Source of the DNA: a virus
Taxonomy: Duplodnaviria; Heunggongvirae; Uroviricota; Caudoviricetes
Virus record (IMG/VR): IMGVR_UViG_3300027763_000047
Coordinates: 6,308 to 70,307 of that record
Strand: one strand, 5' to 3'
DNA length: 64,000 nt
The notes below the pieces were generated by a model, which saw only the letters and a list, made by a program, of their open reading frames with translations, searched no databases and was not told the DNA's origin. Of this stretch, positions 7,268 through 58,664 are shown piece by piece. Each line of letters begins with the position of its first letter. The stretch's first letter is position 1. The translations under genes were made by a program, and so were the position numbers.

Positions 7268-7298
7268 AGTTATACATTAACAACACGGAGTTTACAAC

Positions 7299-13400: not shown

Positions 13401-16400
13401 GCACCACTAGCATTAAAATCCCATAGATTAGGACCAGGGCTACCATTTTGTCCTACTGCTATTCTAACAATACCTGATCCTGGAGTAGGGTTAGCATATA
13501 CTGCCGCTATGTTGCTGATGCCAACGTTCGCATAATCTTCTATCCATATGGATACTGCCGCACCATTGGCTCCAGTTGACAATATGGACAGTGGATGATC
13601 CGTAGATGCAATAGAAGCAATATTACCAGCAGGGTCATCAGGTGTGATAACTAAATTACCTGTTGGGAATGTTAAGTTACCAGTAGTGTCAAAGTTCCAC
13701 TGTGCTGAGTTTCCGGTGGCATCATCACTGCCGATCACAACATTGCCGGCGGCTTCTAATTTTACATACTTGATATCGGAGCCAAAGTATTGATCAAAAT
13801 AAGCATTGTTGCCTGTGTCAAGGTGTATGTGTGTGGCAACATCGCCACCACGCACTCGAATATATTGTAAATTGCCCACGCTTTCGGTGCCTGGAGCCAG
13901 GTACAGGCCACTGCTGCCAACTTGATCTCCAGTGCCCACAACAGCTTGATCGTCGAATGTAACGTTGCCTGTGTTGCCGCCGCCACCAGCCGTGTCATAT
14001 GTGATCTCACCAGTAGATGCATCATAATACATGGCATTTGCTGTGTTGGCTTGTCGCACTGGTTTCACTGTGAATGTGTTGACAGTGGTTTGCTCCAGGA
14101 CTGATCCTGTGGCGTTCAATATGATTGAGTTGTTGGCTTGATTGGAGTTGCCGGCTCCGTAGCCAATGGCCACTGCGTATTGGCCCTGTGTGTCTCGCCC
14201 GGCTCCATCACCAACGGCCACGGCCGAGATGCCTTGTGTGTTGTAACCAGCATTTTCGCCAATGGCCACTGCTGAGTTGCCTTGTGTGGTTTGACCAGCT
14301 TCAAAACCAATAGCCACGCCATAGATGCCTTGTGTGGTTTGACCAGCAAGTCTTCCAAATGCTATTGCCGAGGTTCCTTGTGTGGTTGCGCCAGCCCCAA
14401 AACCAATTGCTATTGCCGAGCCACCTTGTGTGGTTTGTCCAGCTCCTTGGCCCACAGCCACCGACGATTCACCTTGTGTGGTTTTACCAGCACTATCACC
14501 GATTGCTACTGATTGGTCACCTTGACTGGTATTACCAGCTTGATAACCAATGGCCACTGATATATTACCTTGATTGACATTACCAGCCGAGTTGCCAATG
14601 GCTACTGCAACCAGGCCTTGATTGGTTAGTCCAGCACCCGAACCAAATGCCACTGCGTCACCCACAGTGTCTTGAATTGTTGCACCGTTTGTGAGTGTGA
14701 TCACGCCTGTGCTGATATTGCCTGCTGTGATATTGCCCGTGGTGCTGATTGGGTTTGATCCTAATGCAGCCAAGTTAGCAACAACATTGGCGTTGCCATA
14801 ACTTGCGGAAATACCAGTCAGTTGACTACCGTTGCCCAGAATATAACTACCAGTGATGTTGCCAACAGCACTGATGTTGCCAGGCACAGTCAAGTTACCA
14901 TCTGTGCCAAAGGTCCATGCATTACCGGCAGTTCTATCCGTGATACTATAATTGTTGCTACCATTGCCAAGAATACCAAAGTCCCATTGCTGAGTTGCGG
15001 TGGCCTGATCCTGCACTGACATATAAGCACTACGCGGAGTATTGTAGTTGTCATCGTAGCCAACCACAGTAATGCCAGGGCCAGCCACAATGCCAAAGTC
15101 TGTGCTTTCTACTCTTGGAGTATTGACCGTTATGTATGGAGTATAATCAACTCGGGGCTGGTAAGCCGTGTTACCGTTAATATCCAATAGACCATCGCCA
15201 TCGAACTGCATGGTGGTGTAGGTATCACCAGGCGTACCGCCTTGATTGGAAAAATCTCCCAACCAATTTATCTGCACCGCTCCAGAGTTGCCGCTAGGAT
15301 AACCACCGTAAGGATCGCCATTGGCATAGTTGATTGATATTTCGCTGTTACCTGGCAGTGTTAAGTTACCATCAGTGTCAAAAGCCCAGTTATAGGTGTT
15401 TGTTCCAATTGATATGTTACCACCGGATTCTAACTTGACATATTTGCTATCATCACCAAAGTATTGATCAAAATAACCATTATCGCCAGTGTCAAGATGT
15501 ATGTGTGTGGCAACATCACCACCACGCACTCTCAAGTATTGTAAATTGCCCGAGCTGTTAGCGCCAGGAGCCAAATACAAGCCACTGCCGCCGATTTCAT
15601 CGCCTGTGCCTACTACAATGTTATTATCAAATGTAACATTACCCGTATTACCGCTACCAGATGGCAGACCAGTTAATTGACTTCCATTGCCTAGGATGTA
15701 ACTTCCGGTAATATTACCAGTTGTTGAAATTACTACGTTACTGTTTGCCAAATATGTAGAAACATCAGCATTTGAGTAACTGGCTGGAAGATTAGTTAAT
15801 TGACTTCCATTACCAACGAAATAATTAGCAGTAATATTGCCGGTAGCAGATACCGTACCTACTGTAAGAACTTCTGTTCCGGAATTATACTTGAATAAAT
15901 TAGAAGTAGTAATATAACCGGTAGAATTAGCAAACGCTACAGCATTAGCATAATAATTAGGAGAGTACAGATTATTTAAAGTAACATCGCCGGCGTTGAT
16001 TGATCCTGTCGTACTAATTGTGTTGGAACCAAAGTTTGCTAAGAAACCAGCAGTATTTGCATTTCCATAATTAGAAGCAATACCAGTTAGCTGACTGCCA
16101 TTGCCAAAGAAATAACTAGCGGTGATATTGCCAGTAGTTGATATATTTGATGTTAATGCTTGTAAGTAAGATGAAACATTGCCATTAGCATATACTTGGC
16201 CTTGTAATGTAGTTATATTACTTGAATTGTTTGAAACATTAGATTGAATACTAATTATAGTATTGTCAGTTGGCAAGTATACGGCTACATTACTGTTACC
16301 ATAACTAGTAGTAACTACAATATTTGATATCAGACCGCCATCACCAATAAAATAGCCACTTGTTGTAATATTACCTACAATAGATAAATTGGCGGTTGAT

Positions 16401-17437
16401 GCTAATTGATATGCCATTCCGGCTACAACAGCTGAGTTGGCATTGTCCGCTTGAACAGCATAAGTTGCTGCGTTAGCTGTTTGTGCTATAGTGGCTGTGT
16501 TAGCAAATGATGCTAAGTTGGCATTGATTGCGAATAAAGCAGTATCAGCATTGATCGCCTGAGTAGCCAATGCTGCTAGATTAGCTACATATGCTGTGTT
16601 AGCAACAAGAGCAAACGGCACATTACCTACAATAGCATTGGCTGTAATGTTAGTGATATTGCTGCCATTGCCATACAGATAATTAGCAGTAACTCTATTA
16701 CCAACAATAGCATTGGCATATACATTCCCGGTTGTTGATACATTACCAGTGATAGATAAGGCAGATATTTGTCCAAAACTAGTTAAGTTTGAATAATTTA
16801 TGCTATTGCTGAATGTATTTCCAAGTAAAGCATTGGCCTGTACATTGGCAATAACATTGGTTAAATTGGCACCATCACCGATGAAAGTAGGTGCTGTAAT
16901 AGCAATTGTGCTATTCCAGCTGTTAGCTGAGTAATTATATGTAAAGTTAGCTCCTGCTATAGGAATTAACAGTCCGCCGCCATTAGCCTGTGCTGCATTG
17001 GCAGCACCGGTTGCTAGTGTAACATTTGAATTAGCAACAGATAAATTAGAATAGTTAACAGTAATAACATTGCCTGTTACCTGCAGGTTACCAGCTACAT
17101 AGACATTACCGGAGAACGTACCGGTGGCAGCGTTTATATATTGAGCGTAAACTGTACTGAAACGATTGGTACCCAACCCAATTGACCGGACATTGGGCAC
17201 ATCTGGTACAAAGTTGGCTGCTGGCACAACAACACCAATGCCATTTGTGGCTAATTGTAAATTGCCATTGTTATTGGTAACCTGTATGGTATTGTTGGCA
17301 ATTGTGATATTGCTGCCCACCGGGCCCGCTGCAAAAAGCTGTGTAAAATTGTAATTGGTGTCGGTAAAAGCTGTACGAAGTGGCGCACCTGTGCCATCGT
17401 TAGCGATATTGCCGGTATTGATAATTATTTGTCCCAT
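10463..17437 (-). CDS. giant tail fiber protein (2324 aa)
   Basis: N-term MGQIIINTGNIANDGTGAPLRTAFTDTNYNFTQLF fiber motif; about 13 S-A-V-A-I-G-x-x-A-G-x-T-T-Q-G repeats; multiple W-x-F-x-x-x-G-N-L-T-L-P and GNGSQLTG modules. Confidence 0.85.
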   Translation of the reverse strand: MGQIIINTGNIANDGTGAPLRTAFTDTNYNFTQLFAAGPVGSNITIANNTIQVTNNNGNLQLATNGIGVVVPAANFVPDVPNVRSIGLGTNRFSTVYAQYINAATGTFSGNVYVAGNLQVTGNVITVNYSNLSVANSNVTLATGAANAAQANGGGLLIPIAGANFTYNYSANSWNSTIAITAPTFIGDGANLTNVIANVQANALLGNTFSNSINYSNLTSFGQISALSITGNVSTTGNVYANAIVGNRVTANYLYGNGSNITNITANAIVGNVPFALVANTAYVANLAALATQAINADTALFAINANLASFANTATIAQTANAATYAVQADNANSAVVAGMAYQLASTANLSIVGNITTSGYFIGDGGLISNIVVTTSYGNSNVAVYLPTDNTIISIQSNVSNNSSNITTLQGQVYANGNVSSYLQALTSNISTTGNITASYFFGNGSQLTGIASNYGNANTAGFLANFGSNTISTTGSINAGDVTLNNLYSPNYYANAVAFANSTGYITTSNLFKYNSGTEVLTVGTVSATGNITANYFVGNGSQLTNLPASYSNADVSTYLANSNVVISTTGNITGSYILGNGSQLTGLPSGSGNTGNVTFDNNIVVGTGDEIGGSGLYLAPGANSSGNLQYLRVRGGDVATHIHLDTGDNGYFDQYFGDDSKYVKLESGGNISIGTNTYNWAFDTDGNLTLPGNSEISINYANGDPYGGYPSGNSGAVQINWLGDFSNQGGTPGDTYTTMQFDGDGLLDINGNTAYQPRVDYTPYITVNTPRVESTDFGIVAGPGITVVGYDDNYNTPRSAYMSVQDQATATQQWDFGILGNGSNNYSITDRTAGNAWTFGTDGNLTVPGNISAVGNITGSYILGNGSQLTGISASYGNANVVANLAALGSNPISTTGNITAGNISTGVITLTNGATIQDTVGDAVAFGSGAGLTNQGLVAVAIGNSAGNVNQGNISVAIGYQAGNTSQGDQSVAIGDSAGKTTQGESSVAVGQGAGQTTQGGSAIAIGFGAGATTQGTSAIAFGRLAGQTTQGIYGVAIGFEAGQTTQGNSAVAIGENAGYNTQGISAVAVGDGAGRDTQGQYAVAIGYGAGNSNQANNSIILNATGSVLEQTTVNTFTVKPVRQANTANAMYYDASTGEITYDTAGGGGNTGNVTFDDQAVVGTGDQVGSSGLYLAPGTESVGNLQYIRVRGGDVATHIHLDTGNNAYFDQYFGSDIKYVKLEAAGNVVIGSDDATGNSAQWNFDTTGNLTFPTGNLVITPDDPAGNIASIASTDHPLSILSTGANGAAVSIWIEDYANVGISNIAAVYANPTPGSGIVRIAVGQNGSPGPNLWDFNASGALTLPQGSQISETSNTSVNITANANTWAFGVNGNLTLPNSATIIAPNVNDLTLRVTGQYNICTLLTGGSGYGGGGSSSAISGGTGTGMIVGYGYGLSGQVVNVGVTDPGTGYSEGDVLTMTAGNGGATFVITKYNTAANAGNNNTAPTDWTFGVDGNITLPNNYSSINYANGSPYGGGGGNTGNVTFNDINVIGTGNLHLQPDPTNAASYLDIFLTSGPDLHVTNNDGSLILGEDAGANVMVGVSPIGNVSIQSWNGYTSTGNTWIFDSLGNLTLPANTFAVNYANGDPVTFSGGGGNTGNVTFDDVNIIGTGNLNLQPNGASNEYLNIYLTGNADIHVAAGGGVGNVILGTDEQANVAVLQDGNVAIQAGNVSGTKTWNFDTTGNLTLPLNSVVYETNIPDGGLSGSAIALKPTGGTNADQQLLIYPTTNDANHLHLTSGNLYSTELFFGSDDLYVKLANTGNVVINTNDNVGNSAQWTFGVNGGLRFPDNSSISGGEGVFGITSDFSVGIFTNAGPNINQWLFGNTGNLTLPANTFAVNYANGTPVSIGGSDYGNANVANFLGDFGSNVISTSGNITASGLLIDTVTGITSNAGNININQITGLGGYLNAFGANFSGDINAANLSLSGNIISNANISGNVNAANISAGNISLSGNIFAYGANIYSVNGLTMEGGNLTMSSNTGMGGSISAEGNIIGANVNGQNINGGNLSLSGNVLSNLNIQQGNISVSGNITSGSELTVVSANITGVQGLTVSGGDITIPSSMSGGSLSAYGNITGNYILGNGSQLTSLPAPAVTQDITSNGYMSIMLYDGNIKYNNYATVEPSSGNISGANISAAGNVTANTFVGNGSGLTNVAQQTTGSWSVTAGTNTYSFTVSSGTYNMWVTGNIPNGIIAWNALATITNTNVPVVGTQYAWVYNGGGTPLDFVSIPNQFIGTANAIVRSNVAPSSTTNRFDFSINNTSGNSVVVNYGYTKLY

Positions 17438-31636: not shown

Positions 31637-32434
31637 ATGAAACAAATTTTTAAATTGGCAGTTGTAGCAGGTCTTATCGCAACCACAGTTGGTTGTCAGC
31701 GTATTGAAACCGGCGAAGTAGGTGTACGAGTTGGCTTTGATAAACAAGTAAAACCAGGCGAGTTGCAACCAGGTTCTTTTAATCAAACACTAATTGGTGA
31801 TGTACTTACATTCCCTGTTCGTGATGTATCAGTTAAGATTGATGACATGACTCCGCTTGCCAAAGACAACAGCACTATGAAAGACATGGATGTTACTGTT
31901 ATCTATAACATCAATCCAACGCAAGTTAGCGAATTGTATGTTAGCAAGAACCGTAGCTTTCACGTTAAGCACAATGGTGACACTTACTTGATGTACAACT
32001 ACATTTTCAATGCCGCACGAAATGCTGCTTACAAAGCTGCTCGTAAGTATGACGCATTGACTATGAACGACAGTCGTGCGTTAATGGAACAGGATATGAA
32101 AGACATCATTGCCAAGACCTTGGCAGATGAAAATCTTGCTGGTTCAATTACAGTAAGCCAAGTTCTTATTCGTGCGCTAACTCCAGCAGACTCAGTGGTT
32201 GCGTCAGCCAATGAATTGGTACGTTCTAAGAACGAGCTGTTGCAAAAGGAGGTTGAAGTCAAAACAGCCGAAGCAGAATCTCGTCGTATGGCAGCACTTA
32301 CCAATCAAAGCTCGGCCAGTATTGCTTACATGAATGCTCAGGCTGCGTTAAACATCTCCGAAGGTGTCAAGAACGGTAAGGTGCAGACCATTATTGTTCC
32401 CAGCAACATGACCGGCTTGATGATTGGCAAGTAA
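31637..32434 (+). CDS. SPFH/band-7 domain lipoprotein
   Basis: lipobox LIATTVGC; ETGEVGVRVGF...DVTVIYNINP SPFH-like core. Confidence 0.55.
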   Translation: MKQIFKLAVVAGLIATTVGCQRIETGEVGVRVGFDKQVKPGELQPGSFNQTLIGDVLTFPVRDVSVKIDDMTPLAKDNSTMKDMDVTVIYNINPTQVSELYVSKNRSFHVKHNGDTYLMYNYIFNAARNAAYKAARKYDALTMNDSRALMEQDMKDIIAKTLADENLAGSITVSQVLIRALTPADSVVASANELVRSKNELLQKEVEVKTAEAESRRMAALTNQSSASIAYMNAQAALNISEGVKNGKVQTIIVPSNMTGLMIGK

Positions 32435-32684
32435 TATGAACGAACGATTTCAGCAACTATTGAAACAGAGTACCAATCCTCCCTGGGATGGTGAGCAGGG
32501 CCCAATGAACGAATTTAATTTGGAACGGTTCGCTGAGTCGATTGTAAGAGAATGTGCCAAGTATATCAATGAACGCACTCAAGACTGGGATGCCGATTTG
32601 CGGTGGATCTTCAATGACGGTTCTGGTGATATGGCAGTCAATGTTGACGAATTATTAAATAGACATTTCGGAGTTGAAGAATGA
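32424..32684 (+). CDS. small protein of the HFGVEE family
   Basis: FAESIVRECAKYI ... LNRHFGVEE. Confidence 0.55.
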   Translation: MASNMNERFQQLLKQSTNPPWDGEQGPMNEFNLERFAESIVRECAKYINERTQDWDADLRWIFNDGSGDMAVNVDELLNRHFGVEE

Positions 32685-32878
32685 ACGAACGAATTAGAGA
32701 GCTTGCTGATGATGCTGGATTTATGGATTCTTGGTTTTCCGAATCCGGTGATGATTGTGAACGAGAACTTAAAAAGTTCGCCGAGTTGATTGTCGAAGAA
32801 TGTATTAATATTTGTATTTCCAATAGAAACGATGACTCTGCCCAGTACATCGAAAAACATTTCGGAGTTGAAGAATGA
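32681..32878 (+). CDS. small protein of the HFGVEE family
   Basis: FAELIVEECINICI ... IEKHFGVEE. Confidence 0.55.
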   Translation: MNERIRELADDAGFMDSWFSESGDDCERELKKFAELIVEECINICISNRNDDSAQYIEKHFGVEE

Positions 32879-33138
32879 ACTTAGAACTGGTAGCCAAGCT
32901 ATACGAGCAATCATATAAGACAGTACCACATAACCCCACCAGCGGCTTTGATGCTAAATTGGAGGATCGTGTGTTTGTACCAGAGTTGTTCGCCGAGTTA
33001 CTGGTCATGGAATGCTATGAAAGTTGCAGAAGTCAGGTACTTGATAAAGAAACTGCTGACACAAACGAACTAACATATAATGATGCTGTTGGTGATTGTG
33101 CAATTGGGTTATTACAACATTTTGGGATGATGGAATGA
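32875..33138 (+). CDS. small protein of the HFGVEE family
   Basis: FAELLVMECYESC ... LLQHFGMME. Confidence 0.5.
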   Translation: MNLELVAKLYEQSYKTVPHNPTSGFDAKLEDRVFVPELFAELLVMECYESCRSQVLDKETADTNELTYNDAVGDCAIGLLQHFGMME

Positions 33139-33281
33139 AGAAAACATTGGCTGTGCTACTTACAATTACTTTCCCAATTTGGTGTATCCCTGCTGTGCTG
33201 GGGTCACTAGCTTACTTGGCAGTGGCTACACTATATAAAGAAATGTTGGCATTTTTAGAATGGCTTGGAGTTAAAGAATGA
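33135..33281 (+). CDS. small membrane peptide
   Basis: ATGA-coupled; ends LEWLGVKE using the same junction cassette. Confidence 0.4.
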   Translation: MKKTLAVLLTITFPIWCIPAVLGSLAYLAVATLYKEMLAFLEWLGVKE

Positions 33282-33733
33282 CAAATCGTAGAGGATTTTT
33301 ACAATCAGTATCGGCAGCATTGGGGTCAACCCTGTTGTCTGGTAGTACAGTTGCATCAGTATTGACAGCCGCACCTGTAGCATCAGGAGTAGCCACAGTG
33401 GCCGCAGTTGCGGCAGTGGCCAGACAGTTTAAGTCGAGTGGTGTTGTTCTTGATGCTGCCACGCTTGAACCAATATCTCGGGTGGTGATATTTAATGGAG
33501 ACGAGTCAGTAATTAAAGAAGACGTGAAGTATTCTGAGATATTTGACGATCCGGCAAGACTAGCAGAAATTGAAGAATTGGATAAATTATATCCTAATTC
33601 CAATGTGCATAGTAAATGGACCTTGGCGGCGACACGTTTGGTACTGGAAAAGAAAGGCATGCCACCACTTACTGCCGAGGAAGAAATTATGATTATTGAA
33701 GGTCGAAAGCCCGTGGTTGGAGTCGAGGGATGA
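33278..33733 (+). CDS. Tat-signal (twin-arginine) secreted protein
   Basis: MTNRRGFLQSVSAALGSTLLSG... Confidence 0.5.
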   Translation: MTNRRGFLQSVSAALGSTLLSGSTVASVLTAAPVASGVATVAAVAAVARQFKSSGVVLDAATLEPISRVVIFNGDESVIKEDVKYSEIFDDPARLAEIEELDKLYPNSNVHSKWTLAATRLVLEKKGMPPLTAEEEIMIIEGRKPVVGVEG

Positions 33734-34302
33734 CGTGGCCATTGGCTTCTCCATTGAAAGAAAATACCAACTGGATCGTTAGGGATAACGTCTTTAGTAA
33801 TATTGAGCTTGATCAAATAATTAAATTAGGCAACAGTATTACCTCCAGTACCGGTACGATAGGTTCTGAAATAACTAACGAATATCGTAAATCCAGTATA
33901 GCCTGGCTGGATACTGAAGATCCAGAATTCGATTGGATATATGCCACGCTTGCACCAGTGATTACTGAAATCAATGATGCATATTATCGATTTGATCTGA
34001 AGTCCCTCCAGACTTTACAGTTTACCCGGTATACCACCGCTGGCGTATATAAACCGCATACCGATCTGGGTAGGCAAAAGCCCACTAGAAAGTTGAGTTT
34101 TACTGTACAATTATCTGATACGACAAATTACGAAGGTGGAGATTTGCGTTTTTTAAATTTAAAGACAACCCCCGAGTCAGCCCCCAGGGCTCGAGGAAAA
34201 ATTATTTTCTTCCCCAGCTGGATGACTCACGAGATAACTCCCGTGACCCAGGGTACACGATATAGTCTAGTTGGGTGGGTAGAAGGACCGTTATTCAGAT
34301 GA
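33730..34302 (+). CDS. 2OG-Fe(II) oxygenase (prolyl-4-hydroxylase-like)
   Basis: YKPHTDL (HxD), WMTHEI (His), RYSLVGW (Arg). Confidence 0.7.
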   Translation: MTWPLASPLKENTNWIVRDNVFSNIELDQIIKLGNSITSSTGTIGSEITNEYRKSSIAWLDTEDPEFDWIYATLAPVITEINDAYYRFDLKSLQTLQFTRYTTAGVYKPHTDLGRQKPTRKLSFTVQLSDTTNYEGGDLRFLNLKTTPESAPRARGKIIFFPSWMTHEITPVTQGTRYSLVGWVEGPLFR

Positions 34303-34417
34303 CGTCGGTAACGGCATCTGTATCGTTTTTGGCTAACCAGGTCAAGATGAATACTAAATTCAGATGAAATCTGCATGATGTGGATCAGTACGCTGTATCG
34401 GTATAAATACTATTATC

Positions 34418-36358
34418 ATGAAAATACACGAAATTACCTTGTTATTCGAGGGTTATCCCCAAGCTCAAGATGCTTTTATTCAGCAATCGGGCGGTGATAC
34501 TGCATCAGTACAAAAAACTATCGCCGACTTTCGTCAGTTGGTGAATAGAAATCAGATCAAAGACACAAACCAAAAGAATATCGATTGGTGGGCCAAACAG
34601 GGCTGGGATAAGTTCAATGCTTTTGTCAATCAGGCATCAGCAATACCCAGCAAGACGCAAATGACCAGAAAGAAAATACCTGGGCAAAGCATCAACTTGG
34701 TGGATGATGCTCAGTGGCTCATCGTTGTGCCACTGGACAAGGAAGCCAGCTGTTTTCATGGAAGAAACAGCAGTTGGTGTACTACTAAAGTTCATCAGGA
34801 ACATTTTGAAAATTACTTCTACAACAATGAAGTAACCTTGATATATTGCTTTAATAAAGCCACTGGTGGTATGTGGGCTATAGCGGCACATAAAAGAACA
34901 GATCGCATGGAAATGTTTACACAACAAGATGCATCAATATCGGCAGAACAATTTACACAACTGACTGGTCTAGATCCTCAACAGTTACGATCCATGGCTC
35001 TGGGTGACGTTCATCAACCTGCAGTACAGGCATCCAGAGATCAATGGAAGGAATCTGTAGCATTGACAAAACAATTGATGGCTACAATGCCACGCGGCAC
35101 CAGATCGGCAGAAATAGAAAAGCAATTGGAGTATAATAAAGTAGGGGGATTATGCTTTGATTATATCTACCGATTTCAGTCAATTGAATCCAAAGACTTT
35201 CCGTTGTCGATACAGATATCGGCAATTAACAAAAATGGTGCCGTATTGGACCGAATCAATAATCCTGTTCAAGCTGTGCAACTGGCAGCAGTCAAGAAGG
35301 AAAATCTTGGGTTGAAAACCATCATTGCTCATGGAGCCAAGCCCAATGAAGCCGTACAACTGGCAGCAGTCACACAACACGGTCCTGCTATAGGTTTCCT
35401 GAAAGCCGCCGGCATCACTCCCAGCGAGGCTGTTCAAATGGCAGCAGTAAATCAGAGCGGTACTGCTATACATTCCATCATATCGAATGGTATCGTGCCC
35501 AGTGATGAGGTGCAAATAGCAGCAGTAACTCAGAATCCAGAAGCAATAAAATTCATAATCACAGATTTGGGCACTGAGCCAAGTCATGCTGTGCAAATGG
35601 CAGCAGTCAAACGTTACGGCGGAACGTTTCGAATGTTGATGAATCATGGAATTGTTCCCAGCAAAGACGTTCAAGAAGAAGCAATAGCCAGGGACGGCCT
35701 TAGTATACAATATTTGAAAAATCCCAATGAGAGATTACAATTGGCCGCAGTTAGCAATGTTGGCAGGGCTATATTGTTTATTCTCCGGGCCGGCATCAGA
35801 CCAAGTCACGCGGTGCAATTGGCAGCAGTGACGCAGGATGGGCTGGCACTCGATTATATCTTACAGGATAAAATTAAACCAGAGTATGATGTGCTATTAG
35901 CAGCAGTGACCCAGGATGGCCGTGCCATTGAATATATCCAAAATCCCGACGAGCGATTACAGATAGCCGCAGCCAAGAGAAATAGTGGTGCATTAAAACT
36001 TTTAATGAAAGCTGGAATAACCCCCAGTTATGCCGTACAGATGGCGTCAGTTACTCATGATCCCTGGTCTATAAAATATTTGAAAAATCCCGATGAGAGA
36101 TTACAATTGGCCGCAGTCAACAATCATGGTGGTGCATTACATGAAATAATCAAATCTGGAATTCTTCCCAGCGAGGCGGTACAATTGGCCGCGGTCAAAT
36201 CAAGCCCCATAGTATTACGTATGATCCAAAATCCCAGCATGGCGGTTCGCGACGCTGCACACATAGCAGCACAAGAGAAAAAAGCTCAAGAGGATGCTGC
36301 TATAAACGCTGCCAGAGCTGCCAGAGCTGCTCAAGGTGCCCAAGCAGCACCGGCCTAA
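34418..36358 (+). CDS. repeat protein with about 14 tandem ~37-aa repeats (DUF4116-like)
   Basis: repeats P-S-x-A-V-Q-[LM]-A-A-V-x-Q-x-G-x-A-[IL]-x-[YF]-[IL]; TATAAATA 10 nt upstream. Confidence 0.55.
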   Translation: MKIHEITLLFEGYPQAQDAFIQQSGGDTASVQKTIADFRQLVNRNQIKDTNQKNIDWWAKQGWDKFNAFVNQASAIPSKTQMTRKKIPGQSINLVDDAQWLIVVPLDKEASCFHGRNSSWCTTKVHQEHFENYFYNNEVTLIYCFNKATGGMWAIAAHKRTDRMEMFTQQDASISAEQFTQLTGLDPQQLRSMALGDVHQPAVQASRDQWKESVALTKQLMATMPRGTRSAEIEKQLEYNKVGGLCFDYIYRFQSIESKDFPLSIQISAINKNGAVLDRINNPVQAVQLAAVKKENLGLKTIIAHGAKPNEAVQLAAVTQHGPAIGFLKAAGITPSEAVQMAAVNQSGTAIHSIISNGIVPSDEVQIAAVTQNPEAIKFIITDLGTEPSHAVQMAAVKRYGGTFRMLMNHGIVPSKDVQEEAIARDGLSIQYLKNPNERLQLAAVSNVGRAILFILRAGIRPSHAVQLAAVTQDGLALDYILQDKIKPEYDVLLAAVTQDGRAIEYIQNPDERLQIAAAKRNSGALKLLMKAGITPSYAVQMASVTHDPWSIKYLKNPDERLQLAAVNNHGGALHEIIKSGILPSEAVQLAAVKSSPIVLRMIQNPSMAVRDAAHIAAQEKKAQEDAAINAARAARAAQGAQAAPA

Positions 36359-36441
36359 AAGGCAGCATAATTTAAATGAGGACCTTGGCGCTCTATGTAT
36401 CAGTTTTGGCTAACTAGGTCAAGAAAAATAATAAATTATGG

Positions 36442-36470
36442 TTGACATTTAATCAAAGGTCAGCTATAAT
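36442..36470 (+). promoter_or_regulatory. perfect consensus sigma70 promoter
   Basis: ttgacatttaatcaaaggtcagctataat. Confidence 0.7.
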
Positions 36471-36542
36471 GTAGTTGTAGTATGTAGTTAAGTTTAACTT
36501 TTATTTTAATCAACTTTGAAAGGCATCTTAGAAAGGCATCTT

Positions 36543-36866
36543 ATGAAACAAGAAAATTTATTTAAAGTAGCAGGTACCTCCAACCATAATGGAGAAATTA
36601 AAGTACGTTTTGCCAATGACTTGGTATCGCGTATTAAGGCCCTGCATCGCGCAGGTCACACTGATGTTAACCTCGTTGAGCTACCCAAGCCAATGACCAA
36701 ACTGGAAGCAGTTCAGTATCTGCAGTCAGTTGGATACAATCAAGGTGACGTTGGTTATATCGTATCAGCTAAATTGGCTGAGAAAACCAAAATCGCCAAG
36801 AAAGGCGAAGTTAAGGTTAAGTCTGCAAAGGTTAGTAAACCAGCTAAAGTCGCTGAAACAGTTTAA
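36543..36866 (+). CDS. small protein with lysine-rich C-terminal tail (possible DNA-binding)
   Basis: KTKIAKKGEVKVKSAKVSKPAKV tail; alternative ATG 36516. Confidence 0.45.
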   Translation: MKQENLFKVAGTSNHNGEIKVRFANDLVSRIKALHRAGHTDVNLVELPKPMTKLEAVQYLQSVGYNQGDVGYIVSAKLAEKTKIAKKGEVKVKSAKVSKPAKVAETV

Positions 36867-36878
36867 TTTTTCAGCAAA

Positions 36879-36904
36879 AAGGCGGCTAACAAGCCGCTTT
36901 TCCA
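36879..36904 (+). terminator. rho-independent terminator
   Basis: ggcggct-aaca-agccgc followed by ttttcc. Confidence 0.55.
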
Positions 36905-36925
36905 CGAACTCGAATAATTAAATAT

Positions 36926-37168
36926 ATGAGTGAACAGGAAGTAGTGGAACCATTTCGGTTAGCCATCATGGAGATCATGATGATTTTACATAAACATGGT
37001 ATTAGGGAAGTACACATAGGTGCTATGATGCGCCTAGTCGGCGTGGAAGAAGAAGATGCAAAAATCTGTGATGATGAGCGTATTATGTTAACCGAAGACT
37101 TTACCGAATATGTAAATCAAGTGTTGGCGTTATCATCTGTCAGCAGTGAAAATCAAACTTTACATTAA
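36926..37168 (+). CDS. small hypothetical protein
   Basis: 80 aa. Confidence 0.45.
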   Translation: MSEQEVVEPFRLAIMEIMMILHKHGIREVHIGAMMRLVGVEEEDAKICDDERIMLTEDFTEYVNQVLALSSVSSENQTLH

Positions 37169-37410
37169 TGTCCGTCCCAGTATTTAAGAATATCGAATCA
37201 GTATATATTGTTATCTTACGGACGCAGGACGCAAAAAGTCTACTTCAAAAATGGCTATCATCAAATCGTTACGCATCGGCTCGTGTTGATGACAATCGAC
37301 TGTATATAAACGATCATAATACTTACAATTTGTTCCTGGTCACATGGTCACATGGTTGGGATAACATCTTAGTATGGGATTGTTATATGAAGCGACACAT
37401 TTACATTTAA
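37168..37410 (+). CDS. small hypothetical protein
   Basis: 80 aa. Confidence 0.45.
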   Translation: MSVPVFKNIESVYIVILRTQDAKSLLQKWLSSNRYASARVDDNRLYINDHNTYNLFLVTWSHGWDNILVWDCYMKRHIYI

Positions 37411-37471
37411 CCAAAAAATTTGTAGTATATGTCGTATAGTGTATAATTAACAATACTATAAAGGAAATACT

Positions 37472-37660
37472 ATGTCAACACATGAACAAATCGTAGCAGC
37501 TTACGAAAACTACTTGGCTGAAAATGCTAAGTTCAGCGACAAAGGTGTTAAAGCCGCCGCCGCCCGTGCCAGAAAATCTCTACAGGAAATCGCCAAGGCT
37601 GTCAAAGTACGCCGTGCTGAGATCACCACAGAAAAAGAAGCACTGACTCCAGCGAAGTAA
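37472..37660 (+). CDS. small basic protein
   Basis: KAAAARARKSLQEIAKAVKVRRAEI. Confidence 0.4.
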   Translation: MSTHEQIVAAYENYLAENAKFSDKGVKAAAARARKSLQEIAKAVKVRRAEITTEKEALTPAK

Positions 37661-37851
37661 TGACTACGCACACACGTATCGTTATGGAAAACCCAGAAAA
37701 TCCAGAGGAATTAATTCTGGACCTGGGTGAAGAAATTTGTGGTCCCCTCGGTTGGAAAGAGGGTGACACAATAGTATGGACAGATATGGGAAATGGATCA
37801 TGGCAGCTAACAAAGCAACAAACGACCCTAACAACACCACAGCAACAGTAG
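37660..37851 (+). CDS. small hypothetical protein
   Basis: 63 aa. Confidence 0.4.
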   Translation: MTTHTRIVMENPENPEELILDLGEEICGPLGWKEGDTIVWTDMGNGSWQLTKQQTTLTTPQQQ

Positions 37852-38264
37852 CCCCCTCACTGACCTCTGTAATTAACGGCGGGTATGTTACCACCAGTAC
37901 CACTGGTCCGGTGTACTACACTGGTGGTGGCATTGTCGGCGGCGGCGGCTATGCCGGTGGTGCTGGATTTGGCGGTGGTAATACTGCTATAGGCATTGGG
38001 TCATGGTCCAGTCAGCCAGCACCAGCCACAATCACTGCCGGCACACTAGAGCTATCGGGCGATAAAGCTGATATTAAAATCAATGGTGTCAGTCTAAATG
38101 ACACTTTAACAGCTATACAAAAAAAATTAGATGTATTAACCGTCAATCCTAAATTAGAAAATGAATGGGACAAGCTCAAGGAATTGGGTGAACAATATCG
38201 CAAGCTGGAAGCCGAACTTGCAGAAAAATCTCGTATGTGGGCAGCTTTAAAAAAGACTGAGTGA
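37776..38264 (+). CDS. glycine-rich protein with C-terminal coiled coil
   Basis: GGGIVGGGGYAGGAGFGGG; start uncertain (overlaps previous ORF). Confidence 0.4.
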   Translation: MDRYGKWIMAANKATNDPNNTTATVAPSLTSVINGGYVTTSTTGPVYYTGGGIVGGGGYAGGAGFGGGNTAIGIGSWSSQPAPATITAGTLELSGDKADIKINGVSLNDTLTAIQKKLDVLTVNPKLENEWDKLKELGEQYRKLEAELAEKSRMWAALKKTE

Positions 38265-38830
38265 TGAAAATTAAATATTTTTCATTACTGGTCTTGTTGG
38301 GATTGGGCGGGTGTTTAACTACACCCGTTCTAGACTCTACACTAACATCGGTTGACTATGAATTAATGGATGCATTGATCTATGAAAGAACACCAACTCC
38401 ATTGGTTAAAACTCCACTATTTTCTCCCAAGGACATTGAATGTCTGGCCCGGAATATATATTACGAATCAGGAGCAGAGCCACTTGAAGGCAAAGTTGCT
38501 GTGGCTGTGGTAACCATCAATCGCTCGAAAGATGAGAGATTTGGTTCAAAAACGCTATGCGGCATTATATACACAAGAACAAATATAGGCAAGGGTGTGA
38601 TAGTTTGCCAGTTTAGCTGGACCTGTGGTACTAAAATTCCAATTAAAAAAGATAGTGAGCATTGGCGGTTATCCAAGGAAGTTGCTGAGAACATAGCTCG
38701 TGGCGATTACAGTGAGTACTCGTACAAATATCGAAAAGCCCTATTCTTTCACGCTGTATCAGTCAAGCCATCATGGGCTTATGTCAAGCGTGTAGTAGCC
38801 CGTATCGGCGGCCATGTATTTTATGAATAG
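38261..38830 (+). CDS. SleB-like cell-wall hydrolase (Hydrolase_2), lipoprotein
   Basis: lipobox LLGLGGC; ECLARNIYYESGAEPLEGKVAVAVVTINR...QFSW. Confidence 0.65.
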   Translation: MMKIKYFSLLVLLGLGGCLTTPVLDSTLTSVDYELMDALIYERTPTPLVKTPLFSPKDIECLARNIYYESGAEPLEGKVAVAVVTINRSKDERFGSKTLCGIIYTRTNIGKGVIVCQFSWTCGTKIPIKKDSEHWRLSKEVAENIARGDYSEYSYKYRKALFFHAVSVKPSWAYVKRVVARIGGHVFYE

Positions 38831-38831
38831 C

Positions 38832-38860
38832 TTGACAATTAAATCCGCTGTTACTATAAT
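38832..38860 (+). promoter_or_regulatory. perfect consensus sigma70 promoter
   Basis: ttgacaattaaatccgctgttactataat; ATG 38867 only about 6 nt after the -10. Confidence 0.65.
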
Positions 38861-38866
38861 AGCTTT

Positions 38867-39259
38867 ATGACAATGCATCTACTCCCCCCGCTGTATTCGA
38901 CCACAGGCAAAAAGAAAGGTCGCTATAAATTCGCATCTGCTGAGCAAAAACAGCAAGCTGAAGCTAATAAGGAAGAGTGGCAGCGTAAACTAAATGAATT
39001 TAATCGACTATCACCCTCTGTAAGGACGTCAAAGAGCCCTATGCCCACACTAAGCAAATCGCTACCCCGTATTCCCACCAGCCGTCAAACAGCTCACATT
39101 GAGTCCCTAGTAACCACCTGGGGTCCTTGCCTTAAGGTAGAAGATATGCAGTACACTGGCAACAAAATTAAGGGCATTGGCACAATGCATAAATCAAATG
39201 CGGTGCCGGTATTCAGTGACGAAGAAGCTGTTGAAATTTCACAAATGCGGAGAGGCTAA
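38867..39259 (+). CDS. hypothetical basic protein
   Basis: 130 aa. Confidence 0.45.
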   Translation: MTMHLLPPLYSTTGKKKGRYKFASAEQKQQAEANKEEWQRKLNEFNRLSPSVRTSKSPMPTLSKSLPRIPTSRQTAHIESLVTTWGPCLKVEDMQYTGNKIKGIGTMHKSNAVPVFSDEEAVEISQMRRG

Positions 39260-39260
39260 G

Positions 39261-39710
39261 ATGAGCGTAACAGATAATACAACCGATTTATTTACAACTT
39301 TATTTGATTTTGATTCGACCAGTGAGCTTTTGAAGACTAAACCAACTGCACCTCGCCCAACATGTGTAAATCATGGATGTAGTAAGCCAGTTGCATCGGA
39401 TGGTAAGCGTTGGCGTATTCATTGCGGACATTGCCAAGGTGCAAGTTACGGAAGAAACCCTCACGCAGCCGGAGTTACCCCATTAAAAACAGGTATTTGT
39501 TCAAATATTGATGGACATTTAGGATTTCCCTGTGTGATAGACTGGAAAAAAGTTCCAGAATTTGCTAAAGGCATGACTGAAATTGACCATATTGACGGCA
39601 ATCATTTGAATAATTCTATTAGCAACCTTAAAGAACTATGTCCCATTTGTCATAAACTTAAAGGACAACGAGCCGGCGATTTTAAACGCGGTAGATACAC
39701 ACATAAATAA
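39261..39710 (+). CDS. HNH endonuclease
   Basis: Cys-rich; IDHIDGNHLNN...LCPICH motif. Confidence 0.7.
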   Translation: MSVTDNTTDLFTTLFDFDSTSELLKTKPTAPRPTCVNHGCSKPVASDGKRWRIHCGHCQGASYGRNPHAAGVTPLKTGICSNIDGHLGFPCVIDWKKVPEFAKGMTEIDHIDGNHLNNSISNLKELCPICHKLKGQRAGDFKRGRYTHK

Positions 39711-39739
39711 CTGCTCATAACAGGAGATAATAAAACAAA

Positions 39740-39961
39740 TTGAGTAAATCAGATGATGTAATTAAAATGGAGGGTGTAATCACCGAAGTATTACGAAACA
39801 CGAATTATCGTGTTAAAATTGAAAACATTGAAAATCACATTCTCGCTACACTAAGCGGGAGAATACGCCAAAATAATATCAAAGTACTTACAGGCGACAG
39901 AGTACAGTTAGATATATCACCCTACGACCTATCTCGTGGTAGAATTACACGTAGGCTATGA
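39740..39961 (+). CDS. infA: translation initiation factor IF-1 homolog
   Basis: EGVITEVLRNTNYRVKIEN...LSGRIRQNNIKVLTGDRVQLDISPYDLSRGRI aligns with bacterial IF-1; TTG start. Confidence 0.85.
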   Translation: MSKSDDVIKMEGVITEVLRNTNYRVKIENIENHILATLSGRIRQNNIKVLTGDRVQLDISPYDLSRGRITRRL

Positions 39962-40521
39962 TTTTAATAAATACCTACATGAGAGATTTATTAAACTTAG
40001 TGGAAGCAGCAACCGTTTCAGCTAAACTGGAAACTACCCCACTACCCTACGCACATAAAGATCTGGCTCCCATAATGAGCGCAGACACAATAGAATACCA
40101 CTACGAGCACCTGGCTAAAGGCTACGCTAAAAAGTACAATGCCGGCGAAGGTGATGCCGATTTCAACCGTGCTGGCAGCTTCTTACACAACAAATTCTTT
40201 CCCCAATTGCAAGCACCAAAAGGTGCCAACCGTCCCAAGGGTGCGGTGCTAGAACTCATTGAAGCTAACTTCAAAACTTACGAAGATTTCAAGGTAGCGT
40301 TCAAAGAAGCTGCCATGAAGATTCAGGGATCGGGTTGGGTTTATCTCAGCACAGGTGGAACTATTAAAACCATACGAAATCATCAGGTTCGTACCGATAT
40401 TTGTGTACTGGTTGACTGGTGGGAACATTCATGGTCGACGGATTACAAGTGGGATAAAGAAAAGTATCTAGATAATATCTGGAAAATTATCAACTGGAAC
40501 GTATGTTCGGAGAGAATATGA
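39958..40521 (+). CDS. divergent Fe/Mn superoxide dismutase-like protein
   Basis: [37 protein letters not shown] resemble SOD N- and C-domain signatures. Confidence 0.65.
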
Positions 40522-40844
40522 TCACACTAACTGAAAACGCCGCGATTAAAATTAAAGATTTATTAGCAGAAGAAAACAATCCCAAGCTAAAACTTCGTGT
40601 ATTCGTTCAGGGCGGCGGATGCAGTGGAATGCAGACAGGCTTTACCATGGATGAAGAACAAGCTGACGATGACTGGGAGGTCGAAGTCAATGGCGTTCAT
40701 TTGTTAGTAGATAGTATGAGTAGTAATTATTTAAAAGGTTCAACCGTGGATTATCGCGATGATATCAATGGATCTGCCTTTGTTATCACTGGCATGGAAG
40801 CCACAACGACATGTGGCTGTGGTAGTAGTTTTTCACCATATTAA
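40518..40844 (+). CDS. Fe-S cluster insertion protein, ErpA/IscA/HesB family
   Basis: [14 protein letters not shown]...CGCGSSF conserved cysteines. Confidence 0.8.
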
Positions 40845-46294: not shown

Positions 46295-46896
46295 ACGTTA
46301 GAATAGTTTGCCCCTTGAGTTTTATCGCCGGTATACACTATAACGGTGAATTACAAATGAATAGTTATACTGTTAAGTTATTCATTTTAACCAATAGTTT
46401 AGATGGAACTATCAATAACATTGCACTTGATAGAATAAAATACTTTGTCTATCGAGAAATGGATAGTACTATTTTTATCAACAGCAAAGAAGAAGATCAG
46501 TGTCGATTATATCTTGACGCTAACATCAAAATTACCACCATACCCGAAGAACCTATTGATCAACTGGTGGGTATAATGCTGTTTAATAAACTGACTGCCA
46601 TTGTTGAAGATAGACTTATTATTGATGAAATAGAAATAAGTTCTGGTCTTGGCGACGGTATAATTTACATGCATAGTCAAGAAGAAAATGTAGATGATTT
46701 ACCCATACCCGATTGGTGGGCAACTTCTGACCTAGCACATTGTGATGCTAAATTCCTTGACGCTGATGAATATATTACTCTAGCCAATGTAACTATATGG
46801 CGAGATTTAGAGTTGCAATGGCCCGACGAAGCTGAACCCGAAGTTGGAAATACTGTTGTATTTGCGGATTTTAAATTACTAGATGAAAAAGAATAA
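46291..46896 (+). CDS. hypothetical protein
   Basis: 201 aa. Confidence 0.5.
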   Translation: MNVRIVCPLSFIAGIHYNGELQMNSYTVKLFILTNSLDGTINNIALDRIKYFVYREMDSTIFINSKEEDQCRLYLDANIKITTIPEEPIDQLVGIMLFNKLTAIVEDRLIIDEIEISSGLGDGIIYMHSQEENVDDLPIPDWWATSDLAHCDAKFLDADEYITLANVTIWRDLELQWPDEAEPEVGNTVVFADFKLLDEKE

Positions 46897-47407
46897 TTAC
46901 GGGGAAATGATTTTTAATGAGAATGATGTCCTTGATCAATTGATGAAGGGGCGTGCCGTTGATTCATTGAAAGGTATGCTGGTGGATGAAACTGTTGATA
47001 TCGAACAGATAGTATATTTTGTGGATCACTTTCCAACTACGTTTATGCCATACAAATTTACTCCTGATCAAGTTGTCTCGGTGCCCGCATGGGATGCCGC
47101 TCAACAGAAGACCTGGCATATGCCCCAGCAGTATCAGGATATGGACATAGCAGAATACGTGTTAAGTTTATGTGTTGATGATGCCGAACTACAAAGGTGT
47201 GGGGAAGAGCTATTGCTGTACCAACAGCACAACCTATTTAATCTACTGAAATATTTAAAATATTTGGTGGATGTAATGAAAGAGAACCACGTAATTTGGG
47301 GTGTCGGGCGAGGCAGTAGTGTGGCCAGCTTTGTACTGTATAAATTAGGCGTACACCGTATAAACAGTATGTACTATAATTTATCCATCACCGAATTTTT
47401 ACGTTAA
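46883..47407 (+). CDS. hypothetical protein
   Basis: 174 aa. Confidence 0.5.
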   Translation: MKKNNYGEMIFNENDVLDQLMKGRAVDSLKGMLVDETVDIEQIVYFVDHFPTTFMPYKFTPDQVVSVPAWDAAQQKTWHMPQQYQDMDIAEYVLSLCVDDAELQRCGEELLLYQQHNLFNLLKYLKYLVDVMKENHVIWGVGRGSSVASFVLYKLGVHRINSMYYNLSITEFLR

Positions 47408-48364: not shown

Positions 48365-49291
48365 ATGAATGATTTATGGACAGAAAAGTACAGACCCAAT
48401 ACAGTCGATGGATATGTTTTTACAGACGATGCACAACGACAGCAAGTACAACATTGGATTAAGCAAGGCAGTATCCCACACTTATTACTAAGTGGTAGTC
48501 CCGGCACTGGTAAAACTACCCTGGCTAAATTACTGATCAATGAGCTTGGGGTAGATGAATTTGATGTGCTATACTCAAATGGATCTAAAGATGCCCGTAA
48601 ACTAGATTGGGTGGACAAACTGATTGGCTTTTGTAGTACTATGCCTTTTGGTAAATTTAAAGTGGTATTGGTTGATGAAGCGGATTTTATGAATCCAAAT
48701 TCTGTACAACCAGCACTTAGAAACCTAATGGAAGACTACAGTGAAAGCGTCAGATTTATCCTGACCTGTAACTATCCCAATAAGATACTGCCAGCATTGC
48801 ACAGTCGGTGTCAAGGGTTTCACATGCAAAAGACAGATCTTGTGGAATTTACAGCTCGTCTAGCAACTGTATTGATCAGCGAAGAAATAGATTTTGACTT
48901 GCCCACACTTGATTTATTTGTAACAGCCACATATCCAGATCTACGTAAATCGTTAAATTTGCTACAGGCTAATTCAACAACAGGAAAACTTGTTGAGCCC
49001 AGTTCAACTGAACAGTCAGTTGATAATTGGAGACTGCAAGCAGTATCGTTATTCAAAGCTGGTAATATCAATGAAGCACGTAAGGTTATCTGCAATCAAG
49101 CAAACATTGAAGATATGGATAGCATGTATCGATGGATGTATGATAACCTTTCGCTATGGAGTGACACACAGGAAGGACAAGACCGAGCGATTATTATTAT
49201 TAGAAACTCGCTGGCTAACGTTCATTTGATGTCAGATCAAGAAATCAACTTATCAGCAACGCTTTGCGAATTAACTCAAATAGGAAATTAA
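48365..49291 (+). CDS. clamp-loader ATPase (RFC/gp44-like)
   Basis: WTEKYRP, Walker A SGSPGTGKTT, VLVDEADF. Confidence 0.75.
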   Translation: MNDLWTEKYRPNTVDGYVFTDDAQRQQVQHWIKQGSIPHLLLSGSPGTGKTTLAKLLINELGVDEFDVLYSNGSKDARKLDWVDKLIGFCSTMPFGKFKVVLVDEADFMNPNSVQPALRNLMEDYSESVRFILTCNYPNKILPALHSRCQGFHMQKTDLVEFTARLATVLISEEIDFDLPTLDLFVTATYPDLRKSLNLLQANSTTGKLVEPSSTEQSVDNWRLQAVSLFKAGNINEARKVICNQANIEDMDSMYRWMYDNLSLWSDTQEGQDRAIIIIRNSLANVHLMSDQEINLSATLCELTQIGN

Positions 49292-54729: not shown

Positions 54730-54779
54730 ACTAAATCCTCGAATTGTACAGATATTTATCTAGATTCACCAAAGCTAGA

Positions 54780-54808
54780 TTGACATAAATATCGTTTTAC
54801 TATACAAT
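54780..54808 (+). promoter_or_regulatory. sigma70-type promoter
   Basis: ttgacataaatatcgttttactatacaat. Confidence 0.6.
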
Positions 54809-58003: not shown

Positions 58004-58654
58004 GTGCTCAAAGATCGATTATTTTATGATAAATTCAAATACTGTATCTCCTTCGTAATGGATGAGATTACAATATTAATTAAACCCGTTACTCATTATG
58101 ATATTGATCGCTTGATTGATATTCGTAATGAGTATCGAAGACAGTATTCAAGGAATAGCCGACCATACAAAGTTCCGGATATTGCCTTGGATATACGACA
58201 ACAGATTCACGAAATAGCCGATATATTGATCAAGACAACGGAAGATTACAAATTCAATACATCATATAGAACAATGTGGTTGTATACCAACAGCGAAGAT
58301 CTTATTAACAAGTTGGATAAATTAGAATTTATTAGTAACATAAAAGTAAGCGAAGCTATTGTAAACCGACCCAGAGGTACTGTTAAACTAAAGAATCCCG
58401 AACACACGCATCGCAGCTATTTTCGTTTTCTTAGGCCCACTGTTGATGATCGCAGGAGAATTGTTAATTTCCTAGACACTCACTCCTCCCATATTAAGCC
58501 CAGTCCGGCATTGTCACGATATCTGCTCAACGACGGCTTTCCTTTTATTCTGGAATATTTTTTTATAGATTATACAGGTGAGAGTTGGGTAACTGTTTTG
58601 ACCTTGTTGTATCCGGGATTAATTAGGAAGACCCTACCAATTATCCCAGCATAA
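58004..58654 (+). CDS. hypothetical protein
   Basis: GTG start with GGAG RBS; track extension from 57929 overlaps clpA-like 3' end. Confidence 0.45.
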   Translation: MLKDRLFYDKFKYCISFVMDEITILIKPVTHYDIDRLIDIRNEYRRQYSRNSRPYKVPDIALDIRQQIHEIADILIKTTEDYKFNTSYRTMWLYTNSEDLINKLDKLEFISNIKVSEAIVNRPRGTVKLKNPEHTHRSYFRFLRPTVDDRRRIVNFLDTHSSHIKPSPALSRYLLNDGFPFILEYFFIDYTGESWVTVLTLLYPGLIRKTLPIIPA

Positions 58655-58664
58655 ATAATAGACT

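Follow-up and report, generated by a model that had tools for sequence, protein, structure and literature searches.

The peptide MKTYQEFIAE is the capsid-targeting sequence of phage T4 (PMC8442874). These ten residues are enough for packaging, with residues 8 and 10 guiding cleavage by gp21 after the Glu (PMC9026906). In other work an alpha-solenoid fold has been modelled for the DUF4116 repeat family (PMC8078820), and the PA5oct group of phages has been tied to the T4-like viruses through gene sharing (PMC7318152). Here we describe a phage gene that we compared with each of these systems. It lies in a stretch of 64,000 nucleotides (nt) from an uncultured Caudoviricetes phage (IMGVR_UViG_3300027763_000047, positions 6,308-70,307; hereafter the window) and encodes a protein of 646 amino acids (aa), in which DUF4116-type repeats follow a conserved N-terminal domain. 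We found that the phage family defined by this domain is very large, known almost wholly from metagenomes and rich in paralogs, and that its repeat module is interchangeable. The family shares an N-terminal peptide that resembles the T4 capsid-targeting sequence, and about half of its genes are preceded by the core of the T4-type late promoter. We consider the late-promoter and capsid-targeting-like signatures of this family a modestly interesting lead.

The open reading frame (ORF), which had been reported in a first-pass annotation of the window, is a real gene. Its start codon agrees with the N-termini of the homologs, which share the same M-[RK]-x-x-E...EGY beginning. The identical 646-aa protein was called on eight lake-metagenome contigs, the four shown coming from four different samples. 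The earlier finding is real and requires three corrections, for which the data are given below: the repeats have a period of 22/26 aa, the N-terminal domain occurs widely, and there is no unstable repeat at the DNA level.

The N-terminal domain had been described as unique to this protein. In contrast, a first search with the domain returned 113 metagenomic homologs with lengths of 152 to 464 aa. We then found that a profile alignment built from naturally short family members gave 6,908 matches at E<=1e-3, 402 of them at E<=1e-30, when searched against 1.84 billion cluster representatives (the 6,908 are clusters at 50% identity, of which the best 150 are listed). Invariant residues of the domain include N54-I-D56, W58, P105, S111-C112, G115, W120-C121, Y133 and Y143, and the linker that follows is also conserved family-wide at R207, E234, L237 and Y249. 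The shortest members have about 250 aa and the longest more than 1,000. Their C-terminal modules consist of 0-13 DUF4116 units, 'GRWPEAE' helical repeats or MORN-like repeats. The spacing of DUF4116 units across the family has a mode of 22 aa and a second mode of 26 aa, and the window protein, with 14 units, stands at the top of the unit-count range. The median isoelectric point (pI) of the family is 6.2.

The family occurs in giant and T4-related phages, often with several paralogs per genome. Viral loci carrying family genes were numbered with the prefix L (IMG/VR, on contigs of up to 365 kb; L011 is from Salicola phage SCTP-2), and tandem arrays of paralogs were seen in L028 (four genes), L029 (three) and L052 (three). 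Among 50,697 cultured phage genomes the domain was clearly detected by tblastn only in SCTP-2, in seven places, and the 13-kb locus L011 contains five family copies. When the N-terminal domain was searched in this way at E<=5, only SCTP-2 and a marginal match to CcrBL9 were returned. A member from a head-module locus, of the kind described below, matched SCTP-2 only, and a distant family member had no match among the cultured phages. The domain had no hit in Pfam at E<=1 and no match to PDB sequences, and a word-indexed profile search returned no distant named relatives. A Foldseek search of BFVD returned uncharacterised phage proteins together with weak matches to ankyrin- or leucine-rich-repeat fusions. 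We also considered a PcfJ-like domain (PF14284), for which the signal was limited to a weak Foldseek match (E 0.047). This candidate was ruled out by the lack of a Pfam hit and by an hhalign probability of 0.4% against pCF10 PcfJ. Literature searches on DUF4116, PcfJ and SCTP-2 returned no functional study or description of the family.

We compared the N-termini of 172 family members with complete starts. All carry a Glu at residue 9-12, most often at residue 9. The residue two before this Glu (P3) was Ile or Leu in 165 of the 172 members, and the residue after it (P1') was Gly in 151. The family logo reads M-[RK]-x-x-E-x-x-(I/L)-x-E↓G-Y, the arrow following the invariant Glu; examples are MRAYEFIAE↓GY, MRAKEFLIE↓GY and, in the window protein, MKIHEITLLFE↓GY. 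In SCTP-2, whose family genes include genes 37, 40, 45, 46 and 48, the five paralogs start with MKVKHITQYLFE↓SY or a sequence close to it; the start of gene 40 is MKVKHILFE↓NY. The T4 starts that we read were MKTYQEFIAE↓A for both ipII and ipIII, MLKEQLIAE↓A for gp22 and MNEPQLLIE↓T for gp21. Of the 99 ORFs in the window, the repeat protein alone fits the strict N-terminal pattern. By analogy with T4, the first 11 residues of the window protein are a candidate capsid-targeting propeptide with an (I/L)xE prohead-protease site, and we infer that cleavage would occur before G12.

The sequence upstream of the gene was then compared across the family. In the window TATAAATA is separated from the ATG by 8 nt, and no Shine-Dalgarno sequence was found between ATAAATA and the ATG. 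Most other window genes with an intergenic leader have an AGGA-type ribosome site, whereas the repeat-protein gene has none. ATAAATA is present in the 60 nt upstream of the gene in 26 of 53 non-redundant family members but in only 84 of 821 other ORFs in the same loci (49% vs 10%; odds ratio 8.4, Fisher p 1.4e-11). The motif ends 4-8 nt before the ATG in 11 of these 26 genes. Sigma-70-type words showed the opposite trend: TATAAT was found upstream of 2/53 family genes vs 105/821 other ORFs (p 0.05, borderline) and TTGAC upstream of 1/53 vs 121/821 (p 0.006). Within the window ATAAATA is avoided, with 7 copies vs 24.3 +/- 3.8 expected, and five of the seven are located within 60 nt upstream of a start codon on the same strand. 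In locus L017 the motif precedes the gene immediately upstream of gp23.

Two observations had to be set against these results. The exact 8-mer TATAAATA is rare in the window, with 2 copies vs 7 expected by chance, and the intergenic words that are enriched there are the sigma-70-like TTGACA and TATAAT(A). The only promoters reported for PA5oct are likewise of the TATAATA/TTGAC type (PMC7318152). Despite the rare 8-mer and the sigma-70-like words, we accept the late-promoter reading on the strength of the comparative ATAAATA test. The T4 late-promoter consensus proposed in the first-pass annotation is thus supported in a refined form, as enrichment of the ATAAATA core upstream of family genes and its avoidance elsewhere. 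We infer that the repeat-protein gene is probably transcribed late from a T4-type promoter. In T4, late transcription begins about 6 nt downstream of the motif; if this spacing is valid here, a motif so near the ATG would produce nearly leaderless mRNAs.

Several further signals were observed in intergenic DNA. A sigma-70 promoter for the repeat-protein gene was considered and rejected, as no TTGACA/TATAAT pair stands in front of the gene. A perfect sigma-70 consensus (TTGACA-17 nt-TATAAT, 12/12) is present at 36442-36470 (+), between the repeat-protein gene and the next gene at 36543, and belongs to the latter. Similar GTTGACA...TATAAT pairs occur in further intergenic regions, for example before 18863, 20046 and 21392. 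Directly after the stop codon of the 2OG-Fe(II) oxygenase gene, a possible CAGATG...CATCTG hairpin with a 13-nt loop is followed by TATCGTTTTT (34296-34330, +). This looks like a terminator, although a scan did not list it, the loop being longer than the scan allows; if real, it would leave the repeat-protein gene dependent on a promoter of its own. The other intergenic copies of ATAAATA are additional late-promoter candidates. On the + strand these are at 39703-39709, 54785-54791 and 58651-58657, within 60 nt of the starts at 39767, 54841 and 58665, respectively; on the - strand a copy at 54753-54759 precedes the start at 54729, likewise within 60 nt, and is divergent from the copy at 54785. 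In L017, positions 7250-7325 hold three tandem ATAAATA copies with 10-nt spacing (ATAAATAcaaATAAATAcaaATAAATAggag) directly upstream of a family gene.

We next describe the repeats, which had been reported as about 14 tandem copies of 37 aa. Lag autocorrelation of the protein (BLOSUM) gave peaks at 26, 48 and 74 residues. Anchoring on the AVQLAAV core resolved 14 tandem units and a partial fifteenth, degenerate unit (the cap) that runs into the tail, and a hidden Markov model (HMM) made from the units found exactly 14 matches in the protein. In order, the units are 22, 26, 26, 26, 27, 26, 22, 26, 26, 22, 26, 22, 26 and 22 aa long. They fall into two classes, one of 22 aa (5 units) and one of 26-27 aa (9 units), which are distinguished by a four-residue xGIx insertion. 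Thus the reported number of repeats is upheld by the unit alignment and the unit HMM, but the period is 22 or 26-27 aa and not 37 aa; moreover, 14 units of 37 aa would not fit the protein. The consensus given at that time, PSxAVQ[LM]AAVxQxGxAIx[YF]IxNP, agrees with our unit consensus, and the Ala/Gln-rich tail was also recovered, as a predicted single long helix. Variability among the units is concentrated at unit positions 8-10, 12 and 15, and the solenoid is mildly basic (pI 9.1).

The proposed likeness to DUF4116 was confirmed with Pfam. The DUF4116 model (PF13475) scored 36.1 bits against a gathering threshold of 24.9 (E 4.6e-9) at aa 468-507, which is the only stretch that passes the model by itself. 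The model has 49 positions and corresponds to one 22+26-aa double unit, which fits the lag peak at 48.

Repetition of the units in the DNA is weak. Tandem Repeats Finder reported no array in the repeat region of the gene. Nucleotide identity between units had a mean of 52% and a maximum of 70%, and the longest exact repeat was 25 nt. A repeat search recovered 11 DNA copies at 60-74% identity, spaced 66, 78 or 144 nt apart. The DNA copies of the units are old. The sole well-conserved stretch is a pair of 60-nt segments with 90% identity that includes the 25-nt exact repeat, and this pair is the mark of a younger event, a duplication or gene conversion that involved a 22+26-aa double unit. The empty Tandem Repeats Finder result and the degenerate copies led us to reject an unstable DNA repeat, and the identical 14-unit protein on eight contigs indicates that the array is stable today. 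DNA-level repetition prone to expansion and contraction, as claimed earlier, is therefore unsupported as a property of this gene today. Unit number does vary among relatives over evolutionary time (0-13), but it is fixed at 14 on the eight contigs. In the Ala/Gln-rich tail region, Tandem Repeats Finder reported a 9-nt GCTGCCAGA repeat (x2.6) at 36308-36330.

AlphaFold2 was run on the first 265 residues with a 79-sequence alignment and on the full length with a 41-sequence alignment. In the shorter model, with a predicted local distance difference test score (pLDDT) of 90, N-terminal helices are followed by a five-stranded beta core (aa 91-168) and the linker helices. In the full-length model (pLDDT 89), aa 263-604 form 14 helix-turn-helix pairs and aa 606-643 a long helix. 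Confidence is low (pLDDT 43-56) for residues 1-10 of the models. A Foldseek search of the PDB with the full model returned generic alpha-solenoids only (PPR proteins, importin-alpha). The best matches were designed and natural PPR proteins bound to RNA, with E values of 2.6e-5 to 1e-3 and TM-scores of 0.13-0.23 (<=0.25 when normalised by query). Membership of the PPR, HEAT and ARM families was not found: HEAT scored 15.4 bits (E 0.022) against a cut-off of 23.5, and the units are 22-27 aa long, compared with 35 or about 40 aa in those families. The repeat region is confidently predicted to be an alpha-solenoid. The models and the solenoid-type matches support the earlier suggestion of a solenoid or binding scaffold. 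The features of the gene are collected in Table 1.

Table 1. Features of the repeat-protein gene and its upstream region (positions in the window).
Feature	Position (nt)	Strand	Basis
Coding sequence, 646 aa + stop	34418..36358	+	ORF list
TATAAATA, core ATAAATA 34403-34409, candidate T4-type late promoter element	34402..34409	+	sequence reading
aa 1-11, MKIHEITLLFE, candidate capsid-targeting propeptide	34418..34450	+	family N-termini, T4 likeness
aa 12-200, conserved N-terminal domain	34451..35017	+	homologs, AlphaFold2
aa 201-263, helical linker (helices 200-222, 231-240, 243-251)	35018..35206	+	AlphaFold2 models
aa 264-608, 14 DUF4116-type helix-turn-helix units	35207..36241	+	unit alignment, unit HMM, Pfam, AlphaFold2
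Unit starts: aa 264, 286, 312, 338, 364, 391, 417, 439, 465, 491, 513, 539, 561, 587			
60-nt segment, copy 1	35704..35763	+	90% identical to 36070-36129
60-nt segment, copy 2	36070..36129	+	repeat search
aa 609-646, degenerate cap unit then Ala/Gln-rich C-terminal helix	36242..36355	+	translation, model helix

The genomic context of the family was compared between loci. In L032, L033, L036, L039 and L040 the family gene is located between a T4-like portal gene and an S77 prohead protease gene, which is the T4 gp67/gp68 slot, and in these head-module loci the 70-aa gene that precedes it starts MKSREFLKE. In L009 and L017 a family gene is near S77 and gp23. S77 proteases stand beside family genes in L009, L017 and L032-type loci. 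A conserved head-module position as a general rule was ruled out by the count of 4 in 80 loci with related proteases. The closest relatives of the window protein (L005, L007, L013 and L014; 71-74% identity in the N-terminal domain, 7-8 units) sit directly between two ClpP genes, where the family gene has its own ATAAATA 4 nt before the ATG. In L028, L030, L031, L035, L041 and L042, ClpS and in some cases also ClpP are found within 8 kb of a family gene. ClpP pairs and ClpS genes on related phage contigs suggest that this phage group encodes its own Clp proteolysis system. In the window itself, the family gene is between the 2OG-Fe(II) oxygenase gene and small unknown genes. In its varied context the gene resembles a mobile late-gene cassette more than a fixed head gene.

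The clamp loader of the window is most similar to that of the PA5oct group of giant Pseudomonas phages (54% identity), followed by those of Phosso, Atu_ph07 and SCTP-2. By this similarity the source, an uncultured giant freshwater phage, is related to the PA5oct / Atu_ph07 / SCTP-2 group. The clamp-loader gene (48365-49291) is about 1 kb downstream of a 174-aa ORF (46883-47407, +) that matches only part of a DNA polymerase III alpha NTPase domain (E 2.6e-7) and may be a split or fragmentary polymerase gene. An auxiliary cluster at 31637-40844 (+) encodes an SPFH/Band 7 protein, the 2OG-Fe(II) oxygenase, an Hc1-like histone that carries this annotation on the identical contigs, a SleB-type cell-wall hydrolase, an HNH endonuclease, an eIF-1a-like protein, an Fe/Mn superoxide dismutase and an Fe-S assembly protein. 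A double-AAA+ unfoldase of the ClpA/ClpC/ClpB type with a Clp_N domain is encoded at 55702-57981 (+) (phrog_4871, E 2.9e-232). At 112-5461 (+) small genes of 60-93 aa stand in tandem, and in many cases their stop and start codons overlap. In this array 18 of the 24 ORFs form one paralog family (mean identity about 42%) with the conserved ending ...A(T)MF(L)L(R/K)(F/W)S, and their upstream regions are alike too (...ttgaggtggtc before the ATG). The largest gene of the window, a 2,324-aa ORF at 10463-17437 (-), had no PHROG match at E<=1e-5.

Taken together, we tentatively favor a reading in which the protein is a late-expressed, head-packaged accessory protein whose solenoid binds a target, with packaging and cleavage proposed by analogy with T4. 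A T4-type late promoter (ATAAATA) close to the ATG would yield a nearly leaderless mRNA. The first 9-12 residues would act like the T4 capsid-targeting sequence and bring the protein to the core of the prohead. There a prohead protease of the gp21 type (S77) would cut behind the conserved (I/L)xE, and the mature protein would remain in the head and pass into the host with the DNA. Inside the host, paralogs would have in common an activity or docking function of the constant domain and would differ in the target that the solenoid binds. A number of our results weigh against this reading. The conserved N-terminal residues could be a mere part of the domain fold. T4 internal proteins are very basic, but the family overall is not. 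The window copy is found among auxiliary genes (2OG oxygenase, cell-wall hydrolase, superoxide dismutase) and not structural genes, the closest relatives sit between ClpP genes, and the context of the family gene varies between genomes. Placement in the head module is seen in a narrow lineage, in only 4/80 loci that carry related S77 proteases. Searches of the 64-kb window found neither an S77 protease nor ClpP or ClpS (gp23, gp55 and gp33 were not searched for). The sole tie to a virion proteome comes from Foldseek, in a BFVD match to a PA5oct 'structural protein' (E 4e-5, TM 0.33), which was not confirmed by sequence, similarity to PA5oct being undetectable at that level. The main alternative is a cytoplasmic adaptor or host-takeover protein that is made late and never packaged, with a constant domain that docks, a solenoid that recruits a variable partner and an N-terminal peptide that is part of the fold. 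The two-module architecture and the diversification of paralogs suit any adaptor, and the auxiliary neighborhood and the family median pI of 6.2 agree with it. However, such a protein would leave unexplained the T4-like (I/L)xE↓G motif at residue 9-12 of the extreme N-terminus and the members between portal and prohead protease, and we regard this account as possible but rather doubtful.

Minor alternatives were also considered. If the protein served a phage-encoded Clp protease system as adaptor, regulator or substrate recruiter, this would fit the ClpP genes on both sides of the four closest relatives, the ClpS and ClpP genes near six further loci and the ClpA/ClpC-like unfoldase of the window. 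We consider this improbable: the association amounts to about two independent lineages, most loci have no nearby Clp gene, the window has neither ClpP nor ClpS, and the ATAAATA that the family gene keeps for itself in the ClpP-flanked loci makes it look like an inserted late-gene cassette. There is a similarly small chance that the protein is a permanent structural part of the virion (head decoration, neck/tail accessory or assembly scaffold) that is not ejected. The late-promoter motif, the head genes nearby in some lineages and the match to the PA5oct 'structural protein' would be expected of such a component, the structural annotations of PA5oct resting on mass spectrometry (ESI-MS/MS). An essential structural protein usually has one gene copy, a syntenic position and a constant length, whereas this family is multi-copy and context-shifting, with members of about 250 to more than 1,000 aa. 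Finally, a sequence-reading nucleic-acid binder of the PPR / PUF / TALE type, with one base per helical unit, was considered on account of the RNA-bound PPR proteins at the top of the Foldseek matches, the clustered variable positions and the pI of the solenoid. The low TM-scores indicate a generic solenoid resemblance, the units are shorter than the 35 aa of PPR, no Pfam PPR, PUF or TALE hit was obtained, and the number and type of units vary freely among close relatives. This makes a nucleic-acid reader very improbable.

As a DUF4116 solenoid the window protein is ordinary. The interest rests on the family, with its shared constant domain, T4-like peptide, late motif and swapped repeat modules, and not on the repeat protein. 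It is conceivable, though we hold it with considerable doubt, that this family of about 7,000 clusters is a major, so far overlooked class of proteins that T4-related and giant phages package in the head and eject, in which a T4-like targeting peptide and near-leaderless late mRNAs behind ATAAATA are combined with interchangeable solenoid modules (DUF4116, GRWPEAE, MORN-like) that aim a common activity at different host targets. If the proteins are packaged, the T4 internal-protein idea would be extended to giant phages, a simple sequence tag would become available for predicting head-carried proteins of giant phages, and DUF4116 repeats would gain their first biological setting. The cultured Salicola phage SCTP-2, with its seven matching places, allows the packaging prediction to be tested directly.

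We compared the protein with known systems at three levels. Against PHROG it matched phrog_17056 (1e-103, aa 1-401), phrog_28193 (2.5e-38, aa 4-193) and phrog_5925 (1.7e-46, the repeats), so the protein family is already catalogued among phage proteins, with its function assigned as "unknown". Like the Pfam DUF4116 proteins, it scores above threshold and has tandem alpha-helical repeats that form an alpha-solenoid. It differs from them in that its repeats follow, in one fused protein, a conserved N-terminal domain that is phage-specific and lacks a Pfam model, and since DUF4116 has no assigned function, membership is uninformative on the role of the window protein. With the PPR, ARM/importin-alpha and HEAT solenoids it shares stacked helix-turn-helix units that make an extended surface, but its units are shorter (22-26 aa; PPR 35) and it belongs to none of these families by Pfam. 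The T4 internal proteins differ from it in size and architecture: IPII and IPIII have 100-193 aa, whereas the window protein has 646 aa and is folded and repeat-rich. No Pfam or PDB sequence match indicated homology to IPI, IPII, IPIII or Alt beyond the targeting peptide. The likeness to IPI, IPII, IPIII and Alt lies in the short N-terminal peptide with a hydrophobic-x-Glu site at residue 9-12 and in the T4-type late promoter core upstream of the family genes. It extends to the behavior of the genes: those for internal proteins among T4 relatives are described as non-syntenic, multi-copy and variable (PMC9026906), and the same is true of the family described here.

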